Below are positions 3,401 through 32,945 of a stretch of 64,000 nt of DNA, in pieces. The translations under genes were made by a program, and so were the position numbers. Positions within the stretch are counted from its first letter, which is position 1. Each line of letters opens with the position of its first letter. The notes under the pieces are model-generated. The model saw nothing but the letters and a program-made list of their open reading frames with translations, did no database searches and was not told the origin of the DNA. This DNA comes from Escherichia phage teqskov. Where the stretch lies: the sequence record NC_054934.1. One strand, given 5' to 3'.

Positions 3401-4299
3401 TTACTATCCCCGTCAAACAATCTCCACAATTTCTCATTATCATCAAACATCAAGAAACCGTCAATCGATGTACGGCCTTCAATGGAATGAGTTCCAACTT
3501 CTTGTACTGAAGTCGTTTCATCGTATGTAGTAACAATTGTATGATAAAGTGGATTCAGTTTATCTAAATCGACAAAATTAATAATATCGCCATGATTAGC
3601 AAATCTTGGAAGTTTAACATTAATTGGTGCAGCAGAAGTAAATCTACGTACGATAAAATCATTAGATTGCGCCTGATAGAGACTTGCTGGTGTTACAATT
3701 ACCGCTTCTCTACTATAATCAGCTACATACATTTGCCACAGACGATTACTAAAAATTAAAACTAGCTGTGACTTTGGATGAGTCATTAGTACTGAACGTA
3801 CTTGTTCACCTCTAAAGTTTACAATACTTTGCACTGGAGCTACAATTAAAACTTGGTTAACTCCGGGTTTTCCTCCAATATCTTGGAGAACGATAGTATC
3901 ACCATCAATTGGAGTAGATGGTAAAGTAAATGTGATGTCATTTCCAGCTGCAGTATTAACCGAAATTGCTTCGCCAGATTTTAATTGATATGAACCAGAT
4001 GAAACCGTAATCCAGTTAGCATCTGTACGTAATGCTCTCCAGCGTCCGCTATTAAAAGCTCCTGCCGGTTTTGGAATATCATTTATAGCAGCCCAAAAGC
4101 GGTTATCATAAATGATTACAAAATCTTTTAAATATCCACGAGTTGGGTCATATTGCTGAACTGTGTTTTCTTGAATTAAGTAATCAACGTTAACACCGTC
4201 AGTTCCTACGGTACGATCAGCTAAAGCTACGTTGATTATTTTATCGCCACCTGCGTCCAGACCATCTTCTGCTCTGAACTTTCTTTTAATCTCGGCCAT
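430..4299 (-). CDS. 34: Long tail fiber proximal subunit gp34
   Basis: 1289-aa ORF, same length as T4 gp34; fibrous protein with repeated ITPKKL / TATETRRG-like motifs; sits between rnh and gene 35 as in T4. Confidence 0.95.
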   Translation of the reverse strand: MAEIKRKFRAEDGLDAGGDKIINVALADRTVGTDGVNVDYLIQENTVQQYDPTRGYLKDFVIIYDNRFWAAINDIPKPAGAFNSGRWRALRTDANWITVSSGSYQLKSGEAISVNTAAGNDITFTLPSTPIDGDTIVLQDIGGKPGVNQVLIVAPVQSIVNFRGEQVRSVLMTHPKSQLVLIFSNRLWQMYVADYSREAVIVTPASLYQAQSNDFIVRRFTSAAPINVKLPRFANHGDIINFVDLDKLNPLYHTIVTTYDETTSVQEVGTHSIEGRTSIDGFLMFDDNEKLWRLFDGDSKARLRIITTNSNIRPNEEVMVFGANNGTTQTIELQLPTDISIGDTVKISMNYMRKGQTVKIKAAGEDKIASSVQLLQFPKRSEYPPETKWVTVQELVFNGETNYVPVLQLAYIEDSDGKYWVVQQNVPTVERVDSLNNSTRARLGVIALATQAQANADLENSPQKELAITPETLANRTATETRRGIARIATTAQVNQDTTFSFADDLIITPKKLNERTATETRRGVAEIATQQETNTGTDDTTIITPKKLQARQGSESLSGIVTFVSTAGATPASSRELNGTNVYNKNTNNLVVSPKALDQYKATPTQQGAVILAVESEVIAGQSQEGWANAVVTPETLHKKTSTDGRIGLIEIATQSEVNTGTDYTRAVTPKTLNDRRATESLSGIAEIATQVEFDAGVDDTRISTPLKIKTRFNSTDRTSVVALSGLVESGTLWDHYTLNILEANETQRGTLRVATQVEAAAGTLDNVLITPKKLLGTKSTESQEGVIKVATQSETVTGASANTAVSPKNLKWIVQSEPTWAATTAVRGFVKTSSGSITFVGNDTVGSTQDLELYEKNSYAISPYELNRVLANYLPLKAKAADSNLLDGLDSSQFIRRDIAQTVNGSLTLTQQTNLSAPLVSSSTATFGGSVSANSTLTISNTGTATRLIFEKGPQTGTNPAQTMTIRVWGNQFGGGSDTTRSTVFEVGDETSNHFYSQRNKAGNITFSINGTVMPININASGSLNANGVATFGSSVTANGEFISKSANAFRAINGDYGFFIRNDAANTYFMLTASGDQTGGFNGLRPLAINNASGQVTIGESLIIAKGATINSGGLTVNSRIRSQGTKTSDLYTRAPTSDTVGFWSIDINDSATYNQFPGYFKMVEKTNEVTGLPYLERGEEVKSPGTLTQFGNTLDSLYQDWITYPTTPEARTTRWTRTWQKTKNSWSSFVQVFDGGNPPQPSDIGALPSDNATMGNLTIRDFLRIGNVRIVPDPVNKTVKFEWVE

Positions 4300-6565: not shown

Positions 6566-6590
6566 TTGCTTATTATAAATAGATTATAAT
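6566..6590 (+). promoter_or_regulatory. Gene 32 promoter cluster (MotA-box middle promoter plus TATAAATA late promoter)
   Basis: TTGCTTA MotA-like box at about 6566-6572, TATAAATA at about 6574-6581 and TATAAT at about 6585-6590, all in the 100-nt gap before gene 32. Confidence 0.45.
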
Positions 6591-7595: not shown

Positions 7596-7624
7596 GGGGA
7601 CCCTAGAGGTCCCCTTTTTTTTTT
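7596..7624 (+). terminator. Rho-independent terminator after gene 32
   Basis: GGGGACC-CTAGA-GGTCCCC hairpin followed by a run of about 10 T. Confidence 0.7.
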
Positions 7625-7648
7625 ATTTCAAAAATTTTTCACAGAACG

Positions 7649-7678
7649 GTTTACAACCAAAGCATACTGTGGTACTAT
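7649..7678 (+). promoter_or_regulatory. T4-type early promoter
   Basis: GTTTAC, 18-nt spacer, TGGTACTAT; directly after the gene 32 terminator. Confidence 0.5.
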
Positions 7679-7721
7679 ACAACTATCGGCAATACTGCTG
7701 ATGATTAAAGAGGAAAACAAT

Positions 7722-7996: not shown

Positions 7997-8359
7997 ATGT
8001 ATATTGATAAAAAGTACGAACTTGTTCCAAGACTTATTGATACATTTATTAATTATCGCCCGCGTTCTAATTCATTAATAGTTAAAGCTATTCAAGAAAA
8101 TGGCGGATGGTTTGAAGTTAAAGAAGTTTTCTTTGCTGATGGATTTAAAGTAGTAAAACACGTAGAATGCGCCAATGGAAAGCATTTTTACTTCAACGTC
8201 TGCGAAGATGAATTTCATTGTTTTCGTGAGTATAAAGAACCGACTTCTGAAGATGAAGTCGAAGACAAGGTTTCTGGCGTAACAAAAATTCACTGCATTG
8301 TTGACGAAAACAATGTAGATGAAATCATTGAACTTTTGCGAAAAACTTTCAAAAAGTAG
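7997..8359 (+). CDS. Hypothetical early protein, 120 aa
   Basis: Intact ORF with SD GAGGAAA upstream; fits the tight + strand gene packing. Confidence 0.6.
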   Translation: MYIDKKYELVPRLIDTFINYRPRSNSLIVKAIQENGGWFEVKEVFFADGFKVVKHVECANGKHFYFNVCEDEFHCFREYKEPTSEDEVEDKVSGVTKIHCIVDENNVDEIIELLRKTFKK

Positions 8360-8388
8360 TTTACAGAAGGGTAGTAGTGTGATACTAT
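8359..8388 (+). promoter_or_regulatory. T4-type early promoter embedded in an 11-bp dyad
   Basis: GTTTAC (overlapping the upstream stop codon), 18-nt spacer, TACTAT; AGGGTAGTAGT / ACTATTACCCT inverted repeat surrounds the -10. Confidence 0.5.
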
Positions 8389-8413
8389 TACCCTATCAAC
8401 TAAGGAGAATAAA

Positions 8414-8666: not shown

Positions 8667-8999
8667 ATGTCTGACATTCATGTAACTGGAATTTCTCAAG
8701 TAAACATTCGCTGTCAATTTAAAACTGTACCTGGGGTGACTCATATTACTTTATCACATGACCCATATTCTCGTGGAAGACAGTTAACTGGGGTAATTAA
8801 GTTTTTCGGTGGAATTGGCGGTAATGAATTTACTATAGGCGATGACGAAATTGTTGGCTGTAAATTAAAAGTTCAGAAGGGTGTGCTAGAACTTTTTAAT
8901 GATGAAGTTTTTGATGAAATCTCACAAGCAGTTAACAAAGGAATGGTAACATTAGTTAAAATGATTAAAGCTAGTGGATATGTTCCTGATCCTTTTTAA
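8667..8999 (+). CDS. Hypothetical early protein, 110 aa
   Basis: ORF with GAGGAAA SD 8 nt upstream. Confidence 0.6.
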   Translation: MSDIHVTGISQVNIRCQFKTVPGVTHITLSHDPYSRGRQLTGVIKFFGGIGGNEFTIGDDEIVGCKLKVQKGVLELFNDEVFDEISQAVNKGMVTLVKMIKASGYVPDPF

Positions 9000-9010
9000 T
9001 AGGAGATAAT

Positions 9011-9840
<830 letters not shown>

Positions 9841-9860
9841 AATAACACGTGGCGGAAAAT

Positions 9861-10208
9861 ATGAATTTTAATTATTACCCTATTCTATTAGAAAAAGACG
9901 CGAAACAACCAAAATGGCAGGGTCCTCAGTTTATTAAAGGCGTCTATCAATTAGTAGTTCCTAAAGACAAGATTTATAGCAGTTGTTTCACTGAATCCGC
10001 TTGTAGTATTTTCGGTAATAGTTCTCCGTATTGGAATTTTGATATAAAGCTTGACAGAAATATCGATATTTGGTTGAAAGCTATGGATATCGGCAATATC
10101 ACGTTTGATGAGAATAATTATCATATTATTGGTCGCTTTTCCAAGCGTGGTAAAGAATTGTATTTTACGCCTGAAATTGAAAGAAAATTTGATGCTAAAC
10201 CGTATTGA
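9861..10208 (+). CDS. Hypothetical protein inserted between frd and td (no recognisable motif)
   Basis: 115-aa ORF from ATG 9861 (track GTG start at 9849); occupies a roughly 410-bp spacer where T4 frd and td overlap directly. Confidence 0.5.
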   Translation: MNFNYYPILLEKDAKQPKWQGPQFIKGVYQLVVPKDKIYSSCFTESACSIFGNSSPYWNFDIKLDRNIDIWLKAMDIGNITFDENNYHIIGRFSKRGKELYFTPEIERKFDAKPY

Positions 10209-10252
10209 TTATTAGCTTCATAAAATGTATTATAATTTATATAAGGTACTAA

Positions 10253-16774: not shown

Positions 16775-16804
16775 GTTTACAAGTCCCTCGTGTTGTGTTA
16801 CAGT
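16775..16804 (+). promoter_or_regulatory. T4-type early promoter (copy A of a repeated promoter-leader cassette)
   Basis: GTTTAC, 18-nt spacer, TACAGT; 54-nt cassette nearly identical to 32566-32619. Confidence 0.5.
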
Positions 16805-16832
16805 AGTCTTACTGACATAACATGAGGACTTT

Positions 16833-18203: not shown

Positions 18204-19428
<1,225 letters not shown>

Positions 19429-20099: not shown

Positions 20100-20129
20100 G
20101 TTTACTTTACGGTAGAGTTGTGATATTAT
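20100..20129 (+). promoter_or_regulatory. T4-type early promoter embedded in a 7-bp dyad
   Basis: GTTTAC, 18-nt spacer, TATTAT; GGTAGAG ... CTCTACC inverted repeat brackets the -10. Confidence 0.5.
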
Positions 20130-20159
20130 AGCTCTACCAAAACAAACGAGGAAATTGAA

Positions 20160-20687
20160 ATGAGCGAATGGTTTGAAGAAGATAAGGTTTATCGCTTTAA
20201 AGCTGGATATAAAGATATTTTTAATGAAACTTGCGGGGCTAATAAACGAATTGCCCAGTTTATTGGGGAAAATTCATTTAAAGTAAAAATTGACCCTGCA
20301 AAGAATGTTATTAGCATTAAACGCGAAATTGATGACTGCTGGTATAAAGCTGTTGACGTAATGGGCGAATCCTATAAAGTTAGCCCGTTATTTTCAATTG
20401 CTTATATGTTAGAATATTCTTTTTTCGAAGAAGTTCAAAAAGATGATTCTGTCAGTAAATTTGAAATTAAAGCTGATAAAGAAATTAAGTGGAAAGTAGT
20501 AGGTATTACTGGTTGTATGTTTTATATCTATGCTCAAACTGATACGAAAGAAGAAGCTAAAAAGAAAGCTCTAGAATATCTTGAAGAGTATGAAGAAGGT
20601 CCGGTAATGATTACTCAAGATGCTGAATTAGTTTCTGTCAAATTAGTTAAAAACGTTGAAAGTAAGGAGCTGGGATCAACATGCTAA
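20160..20687 (+). CDS. Hypothetical protein, 175 aa
   Basis: ORF with GAGGAAA SD. Confidence 0.6.
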   Translation: MSEWFEEDKVYRFKAGYKDIFNETCGANKRIAQFIGENSFKVKIDPAKNVISIKREIDDCWYKAVDVMGESYKVSPLFSIAYMLEYSFFEEVQKDDSVSKFEIKADKEIKWKVVGITGCMFYIYAQTDTKEEAKKKALEYLEEYEEGPVMITQDAELVSVKLVKNVESKELGSTC

Positions 20688-23513: not shown

Positions 23514-23518
23514 GTTAA

Positions 23519-23542
23519 GGACTCCTTCGGGAGTCCTTTTTT
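23519..23542 (+). terminator. Rho-independent terminator (UUCG tetraloop)
   Basis: GGACTCC-TTCG-GGAGTCC followed by TTTTTT. Confidence 0.75.
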
Positions 23543-23566
23543 ATTTTCCAAAGATTGCACAAAGTT

Positions 23567-23596
23567 GTTTACAGTATGGCTCCTTTGTGATAGTAT
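23567..23596 (+). promoter_or_regulatory. T4-type early promoter
   Basis: GTTTAC, about 18-nt spacer, TAGTAT/TATTAT; downstream leader can pair CTCCTTTGTG with the SD-containing CACAAACAAAGGAG. Confidence 0.45.
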
Positions 23597-23623
23597 TATC
23601 TTACACAAACAAAGGAGAATAAA

Positions 23624-23992
23624 ATGAAAATCAATCTTAACTCATATATCAAAGGTAAAGACCACGACGGCTATAAAGCTATCGAAACTAAAGAACTTCA
23701 GTGGCACTTATACAAAGAACAATTTGAATTTGTAGGTTGCATGACTCCTGAAGGTCCTTCTGATGATTTCTCTTGGAAAATAATGTTAACTAACTTTTTT
23801 ACTGGAGATACATACGAATTAAAAACTTTGATTCTTGGTAAAATTCGCTGTGAGACTTATGAAGATAAAGAAACTGGTTACTCTGAAGATGTTACGTGGT
23901 ATCAAAATGGTCGTATTACCGCTGACCTCTTGATTGAAAAAATGAAAGCCAAAGGTGAATTAAATTTAGATAATTGGATTAAAGTTGCATAA
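23624..23992 (+). CDS. Hypothetical protein, 122 aa
   Basis: ORF with AAGGAGA SD. Confidence 0.6.
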   Translation: MKINLNSYIKGKDHDGYKAIETKELQWHLYKEQFEFVGCMTPEGPSDDFSWKIMLTNFFTGDTYELKTLILGKIRCETYEDKETGYSEDVTWYQNGRITADLLIEKMKAKGELNLDNWIKVA

Positions 23993-23996
23993 AATA

Positions 23997-24025
23997 GTTT
24001 ACTTTGGTACAGGATATGATATTAT
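23997..24025 (+). promoter_or_regulatory. T4-type early promoter embedded in a perfect 8-bp dyad
   Basis: GTTTAC, 17-nt spacer, TATTAT; GGTACAGG ... CCTGTACC inverted repeat at about 24006-24036 encloses the -10. Confidence 0.5.
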
Positions 24026-24062
24026 ATACCTGTACCGCAATTAAACATCTCGGAGAATAAAA

Positions 24063-24428
24063 ATGAATTACATCAACTTTGAACGTAAATATGTTTCTAA
24101 CGGTATTGCAGGTTCTATTGATACTATCTGCCTTTGGAAACATCAAAATGGATCAGTATGCGAAATTGAACAGTATATGACTCCTAACTACGTTTATATG
24201 CGATTTGAAAATGGCATCACGGTTTCAATCACGAAAGAAGGTTCTTCTTTTAAAATCGCATTGGATGATGATTTTCGTCAACGCGATTTAGGGACTCATC
24301 CTTGCTGGAATGGCGTTAATCGCAAGCTTCTGGTTAAAACTTGGATTCGTCATATTCTGAGTAACAGAGCTAAACCTGAGCATCTTGAAGCAATCTTTGA
24401 TGTAGTTCTTAACGAATTTGATATTTAA
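24063..24428 (+). CDS. Hypothetical protein, 121 aa
   Basis: ORF with GGAGA SD. Confidence 0.6.
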   Translation: MNYINFERKYVSNGIAGSIDTICLWKHQNGSVCEIEQYMTPNYVYMRFENGITVSITKEGSSFKIALDDDFRQRDLGTHPCWNGVNRKLLVKTWIRHILSNRAKPEHLEAIFDVVLNEFDI

Positions 24429-30508: not shown

Positions 30509-32566
30509 ATGGAACTTATTACAGAATTATTTGACGGCGCTTCGGCGCCGGTTGTTAACTTAAATCCTAAGCATAAAATACCACAAATTTTTGCTATTCA
30601 AGCCGGTGAAGAAAGCGTTCTTCCTGGATTTAGATTTTGTACATACACCTCTGGCGGTGATACGAATAAAAACGTTAAGCCAGGCGACAAAATGATGCAT
30701 ATCGTAATGATAGGTGTCAACGAGAAATTATCGTTAGTCAAGCTTAGAAACTTGGGTGGAAATCCAATTGGCGTCATTAATGCTGTTTTTGATACTGCTC
30801 TTCAAACAATGAAACAGTATAAAATCGACGCATGCCTATTCCGCGTACTAAAAAGTAAAACAAACGGCGCAGCTCGTCAAATGCAAGTTATTGCTGACCG
30901 TTTAGTACGTACTAAAGGAGCAGGTCGATATGTTCTTTTAAAGGAAATCTGGGACTATGATAAGAAATATGCATATATTATGGTTTACCGTAAAAATGCC
31001 AATTTAGAAGACATTCCAGGTGTACCTCCTATTTCAACTGAGTTATTCACAAAAGTTGAATCAAAGGTTGGTGATGTTTATGTAGACGTTAAAACAGGTA
31101 ATGCTGTTCCTAAAGCTGTCGCTGTTGCTGCTTCTATTGCTTTAGAAAATGATAAGCGCACGGATCAAGCTGTTATTCAGAAAACTAAAATTAGTCGTCG
31201 ATTAGCAGCACAAGCTCAATATTCTACTGTTGATGCTTCACTTCAGGGTGATAGCTTCGCTGCTAAGAAATATCAAGAGTTTGAATCTAAAGTTCCGGTA
31301 TATAAAGCAGAAGGTCCGATGAACTCTGGCGTTATTCAGATTGGTTCAAACTTTAGCAAAGGAGCTATCGGTGGTATGAGAAGTGCTTCTCGTTTTAAAT
31401 CTAACGATTATGAACTAGAAAGTTTCCGAAATCATATTGCATTGGCCCATGCACGTTTACGTGATCCATCTATCAAGTTGCAGAGCGATATAACATATCA
31501 AGGTTCTCAAGAATATTTAAAGAATAAAGAATTCTTTGATTATAAAACTGATAAAATTTTAAGCGATCTTGCTGACATTAATATTTCTAATAGCTTTGAT
31601 GTTATTAAGAAAATTATCAATGATTTAGTTAAAGGTTCTAAAGCTACACCAGATGAAAAGACAGCTATTATTCAATTTGTCATGAATGGCATTTATAAAT
31701 TGATTAATGAATCTGCCGCCCAGGCATATGAATACGCAAGCACTGAAGTAACTCCAAAAGGATTAACTCAGGCTGAGTCTGATGTAATTGAAGATTATTG
31801 TGCAGATTCATATGTTGAAATGAACTCGTTCCTTTTAGGTAAACCTGATTCTACCCGTGAAGAATATATGGAACGAGCTATTAAACACATCGAGACGTTG
31901 GATTCTGCATTTGCTAAAGGTTCAGTTCTTCCTCCAGGAACTACTCTTTATCGTGGGCAAGAAGTTACCTTTAAAACTTTGCGTCATAACATTGAAAATA
32001 AAATGTTCTATTTCAAGAACTTCGTATCCACATCGCTTAAACCAAATATCTTCGGTGAGCATGGTAAAAACTATATGGCTCTAGATGATTCCGGCGCAGT
32101 ATTTTCTGGTGAAGGAGAAGGTTCCGTTGATGCAGAAGATTTGATGCATATGGGTAGTCATTCTACATATGCTAATGAAGATGCTGAAACTAGCATGGGT
32201 ATGGTAATTAAAGGAGCTGAGCGAATCAAAGTTATCGTTCCAGGTCATTTATCAGGATTTCCATCAGAAGCTGAAGTTATTCTACCACGTGGAATTTTAC
32301 TGAAGATTAATAAAGTGAGCACGTACATGATGAAAGAAACTGCTTATAATAAGTATCTAATCGAAGGCACAATCGTTCCTCCTTCTGAGCAATTAGAAGA
32401 ATCAGTATATGATGGCGATCATTTGATGGAAACTGGTGAAGTTCGTCCAATGGCTGGATTTAATCAATTCCTTGTAGAAGAATCAAAAGAAGAGGAAAAC
32501 GAAGTTTCTCAAATCTTGGCTTCTTTGGTTAACATCAACGGAATGTCTAAAAAGTTCAAGATGTAG
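30509..32566 (+). CDS. Alt-family ADP-ribosyltransferase paralog, 685 aa
   Basis: Same N-terminus MELITELFD...; N-terminal about 230 aa roughly two-thirds identical to Alt by eye, central region divergent; C-terminal motifs LYRGQ, FVSTSL, SEAEVILPRG retained; 3-nt gap after alt. Confidence 0.85.
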   Translation: MELITELFDGASAPVVNLNPKHKIPQIFAIQAGEESVLPGFRFCTYTSGGDTNKNVKPGDKMMHIVMIGVNEKLSLVKLRNLGGNPIGVINAVFDTALQTMKQYKIDACLFRVLKSKTNGAARQMQVIADRLVRTKGAGRYVLLKEIWDYDKKYAYIMVYRKNANLEDIPGVPPISTELFTKVESKVGDVYVDVKTGNAVPKAVAVAASIALENDKRTDQAVIQKTKISRRLAAQAQYSTVDASLQGDSFAAKKYQEFESKVPVYKAEGPMNSGVIQIGSNFSKGAIGGMRSASRFKSNDYELESFRNHIALAHARLRDPSIKLQSDITYQGSQEYLKNKEFFDYKTDKILSDLADINISNSFDVIKKIINDLVKGSKATPDEKTAIIQFVMNGIYKLINESAAQAYEYASTEVTPKGLTQAESDVIEDYCADSYVEMNSFLLGKPDSTREEYMERAIKHIETLDSAFAKGSVLPPGTTLYRGQEVTFKTLRHNIENKMFYFKNFVSTSLKPNIFGEHGKNYMALDDSGAVFSGEGEGSVDAEDLMHMGSHSTYANEDAETSMGMVIKGAERIKVIVPGHLSGFPSEAEVILPRGILLKINKVSTYMMKETAYNKYLIEGTIVPPSEQLEESVYDGDHLMETGEVRPMAGFNQFLVEESKEEENEVSQILASLVNINGMSKKFKM

Positions 32567-32595
32567 TTTACAAGTCCCTCGTGTTGTGTTATAGT
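32566..32595 (+). promoter_or_regulatory. T4-type early promoter (copy B of the repeated promoter-leader cassette)
   Basis: GTTTAC, 18-nt spacer, TATAGT; 52 of 54 nt identical to copy A at 16775. Confidence 0.5.
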
Positions 32596-32626
32596 AATCT
32601 TACTGACATAACATGAGGAACACAAA

Positions 32627-32917: not shown

Positions 32918-32923
32918 AAATAT

Positions 32924-32942
32924 GGGGACCTTTCGGTCCCCA
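32924..32942. terminator. Bidirectional hairpin terminator between convergent genes
   Basis: GGGGACC-TTTCG-GGTCCCC; U-rich run on the minus-strand side (after gene 54). Confidence 0.6.
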
Positions 32943-32945
32943 TTG

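Follow-up and report, generated by a model that had tools for sequence, protein, structure and literature searches.

A predicted RNA hairpin superimposed on the early promoter of gene 30.7 in a T4-like phage

In Escherichia coli, intercistronic hairpins such as the REP elements of malE-malF stabilize messenger RNA, and the REPs themselves constitute a sequence family bound by host proteins. In T4-like phages, small intergenic cassettes that combine an early promoter with a stem-loop have been described as promoter-early stem-loops (PeSLs; Arbiol et al. 2010, PMC2839356; Comeau et al. 2014, PMC4122927); they are proposed to serve as terminators or attenuators and as recombination linkers, and are enriched in hyperplastic regions. 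The early promoters of T4 have been characterized as 'uber' promoters composed of UP, -35, TGn and -10 elements (Hinton 2010, PMC2988021; AF158101 names one such promoter Pe133295). A related geometry is found at the T4 genes e, soc, 49 and I-TevI (PMC3014915), where a late promoter occupies the 5' half of an RNA helix that sequesters the SD or the AUG, with folding confined to RNA started upstream and transcripts of the promoter itself staying open.

We analysed a 64,000-nt stretch of Escherichia phage teqskov (NC_054934.1; hereafter the window), which by its sequence relationships is assigned to Tequatrovirus: across 3 kb it shares 98.9% of its positions with phage teqdroes, identity to Tequatrovirus phages is ~99%, and hundreds of T4-like records match. 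Its + strand corresponds to the early (minus) strand of T4, and across the promoter and hairpin between genes 30.8 and 30.7 the T4 sequence (T4 coordinate ~129.9 kb) is identical. The features of this locus are:

23624-23992, + strand: gene 30.8, 122 aa, stop TAA at 23990-23992 (Pfam PF06019 Phage_30_8, E = 8e-42)
23997-24002, + strand: -35 GTTTAC, with the sigma-70 hexamer TTTACT at 23998-24003 and an A+T-rich, UP-like stretch 5' of the -35
24006-24013, + strand: 5' arm of the hairpin, GGTACAGG, within the promoter spacer (~-26 to -19)
24017-24025, + strand: extended -10 inside the hairpin loop, consisting of TG (24017-24018), one base and TATTAT (24020-24025)
between the arms, 15 nt, + strand: hairpin loop ATATGATATTATATA, which holds the TG and TATTAT
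24029-24036, + strand: 3' arm of the hairpin, CCTGTACC (~-3 to +5), with the predicted start G 24032 inside it
23997-24045, + strand: full predicted hairpin of read-through RNA, beginning 14 nt past the 30.8 stop
24037-24062, + strand: A/C-rich unstructured leader without a U-tract, SD GGAG at 24052-24055
24063-24428, + strand: gene 30.7, 121 aa (Pfam PF06919, E = 1e-51)

This site is an ordinary sigma-70 early promoter of the T4-like gene 30.7, built as a PeSL cassette. An inverted-repeat search recovered the arms as an 8-nt inverted repeat, 100% complementary and 15 nt apart, and a consensus promoter scan returned TTTACT-16-TATTAT with TG before the -10, such that the -35 (GTTTAC/TTTACW), the 16-18 nt spacer and the -10 (TAnnnT) of T4-type sigma-70 promoters are all found here. 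The original prediction had both hexamers and the perfect 8-bp dyad at their correct coordinates; its 17-nt spacer holds when counted from GTTTAC and becomes 16 nt by the sigma-70 convention, and it had overlooked the TG of the extended -10. GTTTAC matches the T4 early-promoter consensus GTTTAC(N14)gtggTAttaT, as cited within a GenBank annotation, and the 20 nt upstream of the -35 are 80% A+T in the T4 orthologue of the 30.7 promoter. The elements are the same as those of the 'uber' promoters, with no difference at the level of the promoter. Time-resolved omics classify T4 30.7 and 30.8 as early RNA and early protein (PMC9697503 supplement), which defines an expression class and not a mapped start; the start G at 24032 is placed by the usual 7-nt distance past the -10. 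The early assignment made from the sequence is therefore upheld by the -35, TGn and -10, the A+T-rich upstream DNA, the position directly 5' of the SD and ATG of gp30.7, the identity with T4 and the early expression of 30.7.

The order of elements, from the stop codon (23990-23992) through the promoter (23997-24025), the stem (24006-24013/24029-24036) and the SD (24052-24055) to the ATG (24063), is the PeSL layout of an early promoter plus stem-loop between an upstream stop and a downstream SD and ATG. The likeness extends to an upstream stop in an AT-rich stretch leading into a sigma-70 early promoter and stem-loop in intergenic DNA, to a 'stem-loop overlapping -10 box' being among the commonest phi1 subclasses (PMC2839356), to the T4/PST consensus TTTACW-N17-TAYWAT (PMC4122927), which the 30.7 site fits, and to a location among small genes without an assigned function and at the junctions of indels or replacements. 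There are also differences: the phi1/RB49 PeSLs have polyG/polyC stems and include one strong terminator, whereas the 30.7 stem is of mixed sequence and lacks a U-tract, and the T4/PST figure legend of 2014 (PMC4122927) places the stem-loops just 5' of the promoter, whereas most of those in the window and in T4 are superimposed on the -10.

The 30.7 element thus belongs to a type published in 2010, so that the observation is right but not new; a T4 early promoter of textbook kind, set in a cassette already described, contributes little of its own. Genes 30.7 and 30.8 are unmentioned in the text of PMC2839356 and PMC4122927, and overlapping dyads are not described in the available parts of T4 reviews that treat the promoter elements (PMC2988021). 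What our computations add to the PeSL picture, relative to the parts of the literature at hand, is sense-strand specificity, the lack of U-tracts, complementarity with terminators and the frequency with which the SD is included in the stem; mention of sense-strand specificity or of terminator complementarity was not found in the available portions of PMC2839356 and PMC4122927.

Folding of read-through RNA, one of the checks suggested with the original prediction, gave -19.2 kcal/mol at 30.7 (z = -4.27), with 0 of 200 shuffles equally stable. The MFE fold comprises the 8 bp plus a U.G pair, an inner AUAUG/UAUAU stretch and an outer GUUUA/UAAAC stretch. We treated the outer helix (23997-24001 with 24041-24045) as incidental, because its 3' partner varies in relatives; with these pairs unconserved, the 8-bp core alone is well supported. 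The claim that the hairpin is restricted to read-through RNA agrees with the geometry, the 5' arm lying at -26 to -19 and the predicted +1 (24032) inside the 3' arm, so that locally initiated RNA would lack the 5' arm. We also considered whether the complementary strand of the loop might hold a late promoter and rejected this on reading the sequence, TATAAATA being absent there. Rfam returned 0 matches above the gathering score across the whole window, and the 30.7 cassette has no paralogous copies within the window beyond the consensus hexamers.

Hairpins of this size are common by themselves. The window holds 67 raw 8-bp dyads with loops of up to 20 nt against 32.5 +/- 7.5 in dinucleotide shuffles, a count that lists nested versions of one stem separately in window and shuffles alike (the window has ~48 distinct hairpins). 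We discarded such genome-wide counts as evidence, since 8-bp dyads taken singly do not stand out significantly; what stands out is where they lie with respect to the -10. When the non-consensus positions alone were shuffled, a stem of at least 8 bp enclosed the 30.7 -10 in 0.2% of trials (P = 0.002). A search with the fixed pattern GTTTAC-N17-TAnnnT found one instance, the 30.7 site, against 0.9 expected, and was likewise set aside: the sibling promoters have N18, which makes a fixed-spacer count uninformative. The flexible scan used instead yielded eight GTTTAC/TGn/-10 promoters on the + strand (4345, 7649, 8359, 16775, 20100, 23567, 23997 and 32566), six of them with a significant hairpin across the -10. 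The sibling cassettes are:

8359-8394, + strand: cassette between frd.2 and frd.1; GTTTAC, TGn-TACTAT, arms AGGGTAGTAGT/ACTATTACCCT with one G.T; z = -3.09
16775-16831, + strand: cassette in the rnlA/alc gap; stem of 13 bp that includes two G.U pairs and holds the SD in its 3' arm; z = -4.40
20100-20138, + strand: cassette after cd.3 (T4 Pe133295); arms GGTAGAG/CTCTACC; z = -4.88; P = 0.023
23567-23617, + strand: cassette between 30.9 and 30.8; arms CTCCTTTGT/ACAAAGGAG, the 3' arm containing the 30.8 SD; P = 0.004
32566-32620, + strand: cassette upstream of alt.-3, a paralogous copy of the 16775 cassette; z = -4.91

Recurrence of the architecture at 8359-8394 and 20100-20138 had been noticed from the sequence. 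It is real at both places, with stems less perfect than that of 30.7: at 8359, 11 bp with one G.T (8368-8378/8384-8394), the 3' arm overlapping the -10, and at 20100, 7 bp without mismatch (20111-20117/20132-20138); in both, GTTTAC and the -10 are 18 nt apart, not 17. The cassettes upstream of alc and alt.-3 represent one 54-nt unit present twice at 96% identity (16775-16828 and 32566-32619). Both hold the downstream SD (GAGGA) in the 3' arm of the 13-bp stem, and read-through RNA should therefore translate poorly.

To extend the comparison beyond the window, we scanned 131 kb of T4 (AF158101; 38 kb of T4 lay outside the survey) by pattern and, after removing six intragenic matches by eye, retained 35 intergenic early-promoter candidates. 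A stem spanning the -10 with a score of at least 7 occurs at 19 of the 35 (mean of 4.0 in shuffles), one of at least 8 at 15 (mean of 1.4) and one of at least 10 at 7 (mean of 0.1); random genomic 70-mers reach a score of at least 7 in 12.9% of cases. The architecture of a hairpin around the -10 is beyond chance. With six of eight promoters in the window and 19 of 35 in T4 against ~4 expected, the recurrence of PeSLs among small non-essential genes is seen here as well.

The stems further carry a signature of strand. Although all mismatches were scored alike in the T4 stem search, those within the 19 stems divide into 12 G.T, 1 A.C and 1 other, against 32:28:140 in shuffled controls, and the T4 segments fold better as sense than as antisense RNA, by a mean of 4.0 kcal/mol (composition control -0.3; Wilcoxon p = 4e-5). 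The stems are thus sense-strand specific, which indicates a role at the RNA level rather than a protein site in DNA: a duplex palindrome or cruciform would be strand-symmetric, and the selected structure is therefore a single strand of early-transcript polarity. The 30.7 stem is fully Watson-Crick and its sense and antisense energies are nearly equal (-16.1 vs -15.0 kcal/mol), so that strand specificity is a property established for the hairpin family and not for this member.

In the window, promoter 4345 follows late gene 34, which is on the other strand, so that no early RNA arrives from upstream, and promoter 7649 lies 35 nt past the gene-32 terminator GGGGACC...GGTCCCC-T10; neither has a hairpin. 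Among the orthologues of 30.7, fHe-Yen9-01 and Roth19 are exactly the ones without the hairpin, and immediately upstream each carries a canonical terminator consisting of a stem and a T-run. Six T4 promoters are preceded by a canonical terminator at a distance of up to 90 nt, and one of these six has a -10 hairpin (odds ratio 0.12), a complementarity that amounts to a trend (Fisher p = 0.07), 11 of the 35 promoters having neither by the criteria used. As read from the sequences, the alternation of hairpin and terminator fits an action on upstream RNA and does not itself demonstrate termination.

The arms GGTACAGG/CCTGTACC are invariant among Tequatrovirus, Mosigvirus and Dhakavirus relatives while the loop and leader vary, which left the covariation check proposed with the original prediction uninformative at close range. 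In one metagenomic relative the 3' arm is CTTGTACC, leaving a G.U pair. In Marfavirus P545 the 5' arm reads GGTGTAGG and the 3' arm is changed to compensate, its hairpin arms GGTGTAGGAGTA/TACTCTTACACC differing from those of T4 by two compensatory pairs and one G.U. The formal covariation signal on alignable 30.7 orthologues is modest, being reached by 37 of 500 shuffles. More distant orthologues, whose arms are non-alignable, were compared by architecture. Kanagawavirus (GCTGATTGAGTGT/ACACTCAATCAGC) and Yersinia phage MHG19 (GCTGATTGA/TCAATCAGC) have a hairpin at the same position built from other arms, as have Karamvirus and Gelderlandvirus, in which the 30.7 SD itself makes up the 3' arm (CTCCGTTGTAT/ATACAACGGAG). 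In Klebsiella phage Roth19, ~70 nt upstream of position 601, CCTGTACC and the TATAGA end of the loop are kept and the 5' arm is replaced; with its canonical terminator upstream, this looks, from the sequence, like a chimeric or half cassette of the kind that recombination inside the element would give.

Recombination junctions lie at the cassettes. Between the window and T4, nucleotide homology is lost over 23642-23980, the body of 30.8, which lies between the cassettes 23567 and 23997; the two 30.8 proteins are distantly alike, and the flanking DNA is 91-96% identical. Both 30.8 alleles circulate in Tequatrovirus, Mosigvirus and Dhakavirus relatives, and each is paired with both cassette/30.7-side variants, all four combinations being in existence, which implies exchange within ~40 nt at the cassette. 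Other junctions between the window and T4 fall at cassette edges (8400/8409, 20162 and 32547). A 519-nt insertion relative to T4 (20163-20681) sits exactly at the ATG after the 20100 cassette, ahead of cd.2, and carries an ORF (20160-20687, 175 aa, phrog_3710) with no Pfam match. The association of PeSLs with indel and replacement junctions holds here, the 30.8 swap being bounded by the cassettes 23567 and 23997. The T4-type 30.8 allele additionally ends with a second promoter-like sequence, TTGACA-N17-TAAAAT, just 5' of GTTTAC (T4 126000-131000, positions ~3925-3955 therein, minus strand), which is an annotated promoter in SA20RB; its counterpart in the 30.8 allele of the window is weak (TAGATA-17-TAAAAT, 23967-23995).

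Set beside the identity of the promoter, the non-random -10 hairpins, the sense-strand specificity of their stems, the absence of U-tracts and the junctions at cassette edges, the reading we consider probable is that a read-through-specific RNA hairpin bounds and protects the upstream message, in a cassette that doubles as a recombination linker. The two arms fall in those parts of the promoter that go unread by RNA polymerase (the spacer at -26 to -19, and -3 to +5), with the constrained TGn and -10 serving as the loop. RNA initiated locally at 30.7 would start within the 3' arm and have an open leader; RNA from the 30.8 promoter at 23567, or from further back, would contain both arms and could form the hairpin 14 nt past the 30.8 stop. 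There it would mark the 3' boundary of the upstream message and block 3' exonucleases after cuts in the leader, for example by RNase E or by RegB at GGAG 24052-24055 (the SD of 30.7 being a RegB cleavage motif as well; specificity for GGAG in PMC3014915 and in a T4 record note). The hairpin may also weakly attenuate read-through, and would in this way stand in for the canonical terminator present at other early promoters. As an independent second role, the conserved cassette could act as a homology patch for the exchange of gene modules between co-infecting phages. Hairpin formation in vivo and an effect on RNA ends are what this model predicts, and a literature search for T4 5'/3' RNA-end maps found none.

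Such a protective boundary would resemble the REP elements in being a stable hairpin without a U-tract just past a stop in polycistronic RNA, where it would be expected to shield the upstream cistron by blocking 3' exonucleases; unlike the REP sequence family, the -10 hairpins have no sequence in common and are built into a promoter. From the functions first suggested, our results favour a stabiliser or attenuator of upstream messages, the stems being sense-strand specific and occurring at promoters that lack a canonical terminator upstream. Less likely than the protective-boundary reading are efficient termination, an action on DNA, a translational gate at 30.7 and neutrality.

That the hairpin is an efficient terminator of upstream transcripts, a 'promoter-terminator' PeSL in which each gene is transcriptionally insulated, appears unlikely. 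In its favour, the stem-loop of phi1 PeSL211/210 is reported to cut lacZ expression as strongly as rrnB T1 (PMC2839356), and for at least some PeSLs this result of Arbiol et al. favours strong termination over stabilisation. The GenBank record SA20RB annotates the 30.7 hairpin as a rho-independent terminator (WebGeSTer), and the hairpins largely alternate with canonical upstream terminators. Against this, the 30.7 3' arm is followed by GCAATTAAAC and its tail (GCAATTAA) contains no U-tract, a consensus terminator scan made no call, and the SA20RB call came from one of two prediction tools. The tails of all 19 T4 stems are A-rich or mixed and none is a T-run, whereas the genuine terminators of the region (7596-7614 and 23517-23538) have T-runs of 5-10. 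The loop is 15 nt long and shrinks to 4 nt solely if weak A-U and G-U pairs form. Moreover, ~9 of 20 T4 hairpins hold the downstream SD in the 3' arm, and SD sequestration matters only where there is read-through RNA. The same inclusion of the SD speaks for a hairpin that gates translation, making read-through RNA untranslatable for 30.7 in an early analogue of e, soc, 49 and I-TevI, a paradigm established for late promoters (PMC3014915). The SD is within the 3' arm at the neighbouring cassettes 23567, 16775 and 32566, in the 30.7 orthologues of Karamvirus and Gelderlandvirus, and at ~9 T4 early promoters including those of regB, alc and 30.8. The 30.7 site shares with the late genes a promoter in the 5' half of the helix, yet differs from them in that its promoter is early and its SD free: 15 nt separate the end of the core stem from the SD, and the MFE and centroid folds leave both SD and AUG unpaired, so that direct occlusion is not predicted, and gating is the least probable of the readings considered for this site.

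Action of the dyad on DNA, as a dimeric protein site (for example of an early shut-off repressor) or as a cruciform or hairpin target of a recombination enzyme, would draw on the fact that the mechanism of T4 early-promoter shut-off is still unknown, on the perfect complementarity of the 30.7 arms and their invariance among close relatives, and on the junctions at cassette edges; Arbiol et al. (PMC2839356) speculate that the stem-loop could be the target of a DNA-binding recombination protein. We regard it as very improbable. The sequence of the arms, their length (6-14 bp) and the loop (5-25 nt) differ from promoter to promoter, which leaves no common motif or geometry for a protein, and this, with a G.T in one strand becoming an A.C in the other, counts against the DNA-level binding site that the original prediction had offered as an option. 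G.T is tolerated where A.C is not (12 vs 1), antisense folds are ~4 kcal/mol worse, the arms have been replaced with compensation between genera, and homology alone can explain the junctions. A functionless hairpin, a neutral or hitch-hiking feature of a cassette spread by recombination, is decidedly unlikely as well. It would accord with the abundance of 8-bp dyads by chance in the window, with arms that do not vary among close relatives and with the paralogous copying of some cassettes (16775 and 32566), but it would have to accommodate a four- to ten-fold enrichment over the null across 35 promoters, different arm sequences at the same position in distant genera, compensatory and G.U-only changes, and loss of the hairpin exactly where a canonical terminator is present.

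More tentatively, the hairpins of T4 early promoters could together form a genome-wide RNA device that distinguishes read-through from locally started RNA, an idea that we did not find described in the available parts of T4 reviews or of the PeSL papers. If so, about half of the hairpins would silence downstream translation on read-through RNA and confine alc, regB, 30.8 and alt.-3 to the first minutes of infection, while the remainder, including that of 30.7, would set a protected 3' end of the upstream message after cleavage by RegB or RNase E; this would constitute a systematic post-transcriptional layer of early-gene timing. The terminator label of the PeSL papers rests on one phi1 element. 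The T4-type stem-loops lack U-tracts, are sense-strand specific and often hold the ribosome-binding site of the next gene. Control of RNA ends or translation, rather than termination, would refine the view of how early expression is confined in time and would help to explain why the cassettes are conserved sufficiently to serve as recombination linkers.

Several further features of the region were recorded. The gap between 30.9 and 30.8 (23517-23617) contains, in order, a canonical terminator (AAGGACTCC-TTCG-GGAGTCCTT plus a T-run, 23517-23538), the early promoter 23567 and a hairpin with the 30.8 SD GGAG as its 3' arm; 23567 is the sole T4-type promoter found that has both a terminator and a -10 hairpin. 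The SDs after three cassettes (24052-24055, 8404-8407 and 23614-23617) are GGAG within GGAGAATAAAATG, the motif of the RegB endoribonuclease, and at 23614-23617 the motif is part of a hairpin arm; in read-through RNA this might protect it from RegB. Past the gene-32 terminator, the promoter and leader at 7619-7687 match the motA promoter region of T4 at 96% identity and two further T4 early promoter regions at 83-87%, and are members of a promoter/leader repeat family with dispersed copies (TGGTACTATACAACTATC...). Where the early (alt.-3) and late (gene 54) units converge, the consensus scan called a terminator on both strands at a G+C-rich hairpin of 9 perfectly paired bp (32922-32943, ATGGGGACC-TTTC-GGTCCCCAT). 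Compared with T4, the window is without segG, the td intron with I-TevI, mobE (with nrdB.1) and the nrdB intron with I-TevIII (at 6566/6602, 10801/10802, 13931/13987 and 14651/14654), all of which are homing-endonuclease-associated DNA. Conversely, the stretches 8724-9239, 9849-10249 and 18211-18523 of the window are absent from T4, the first of them overlapping an ORF at 8667-8999 (110 aa, DUF7247/phrog_3566).
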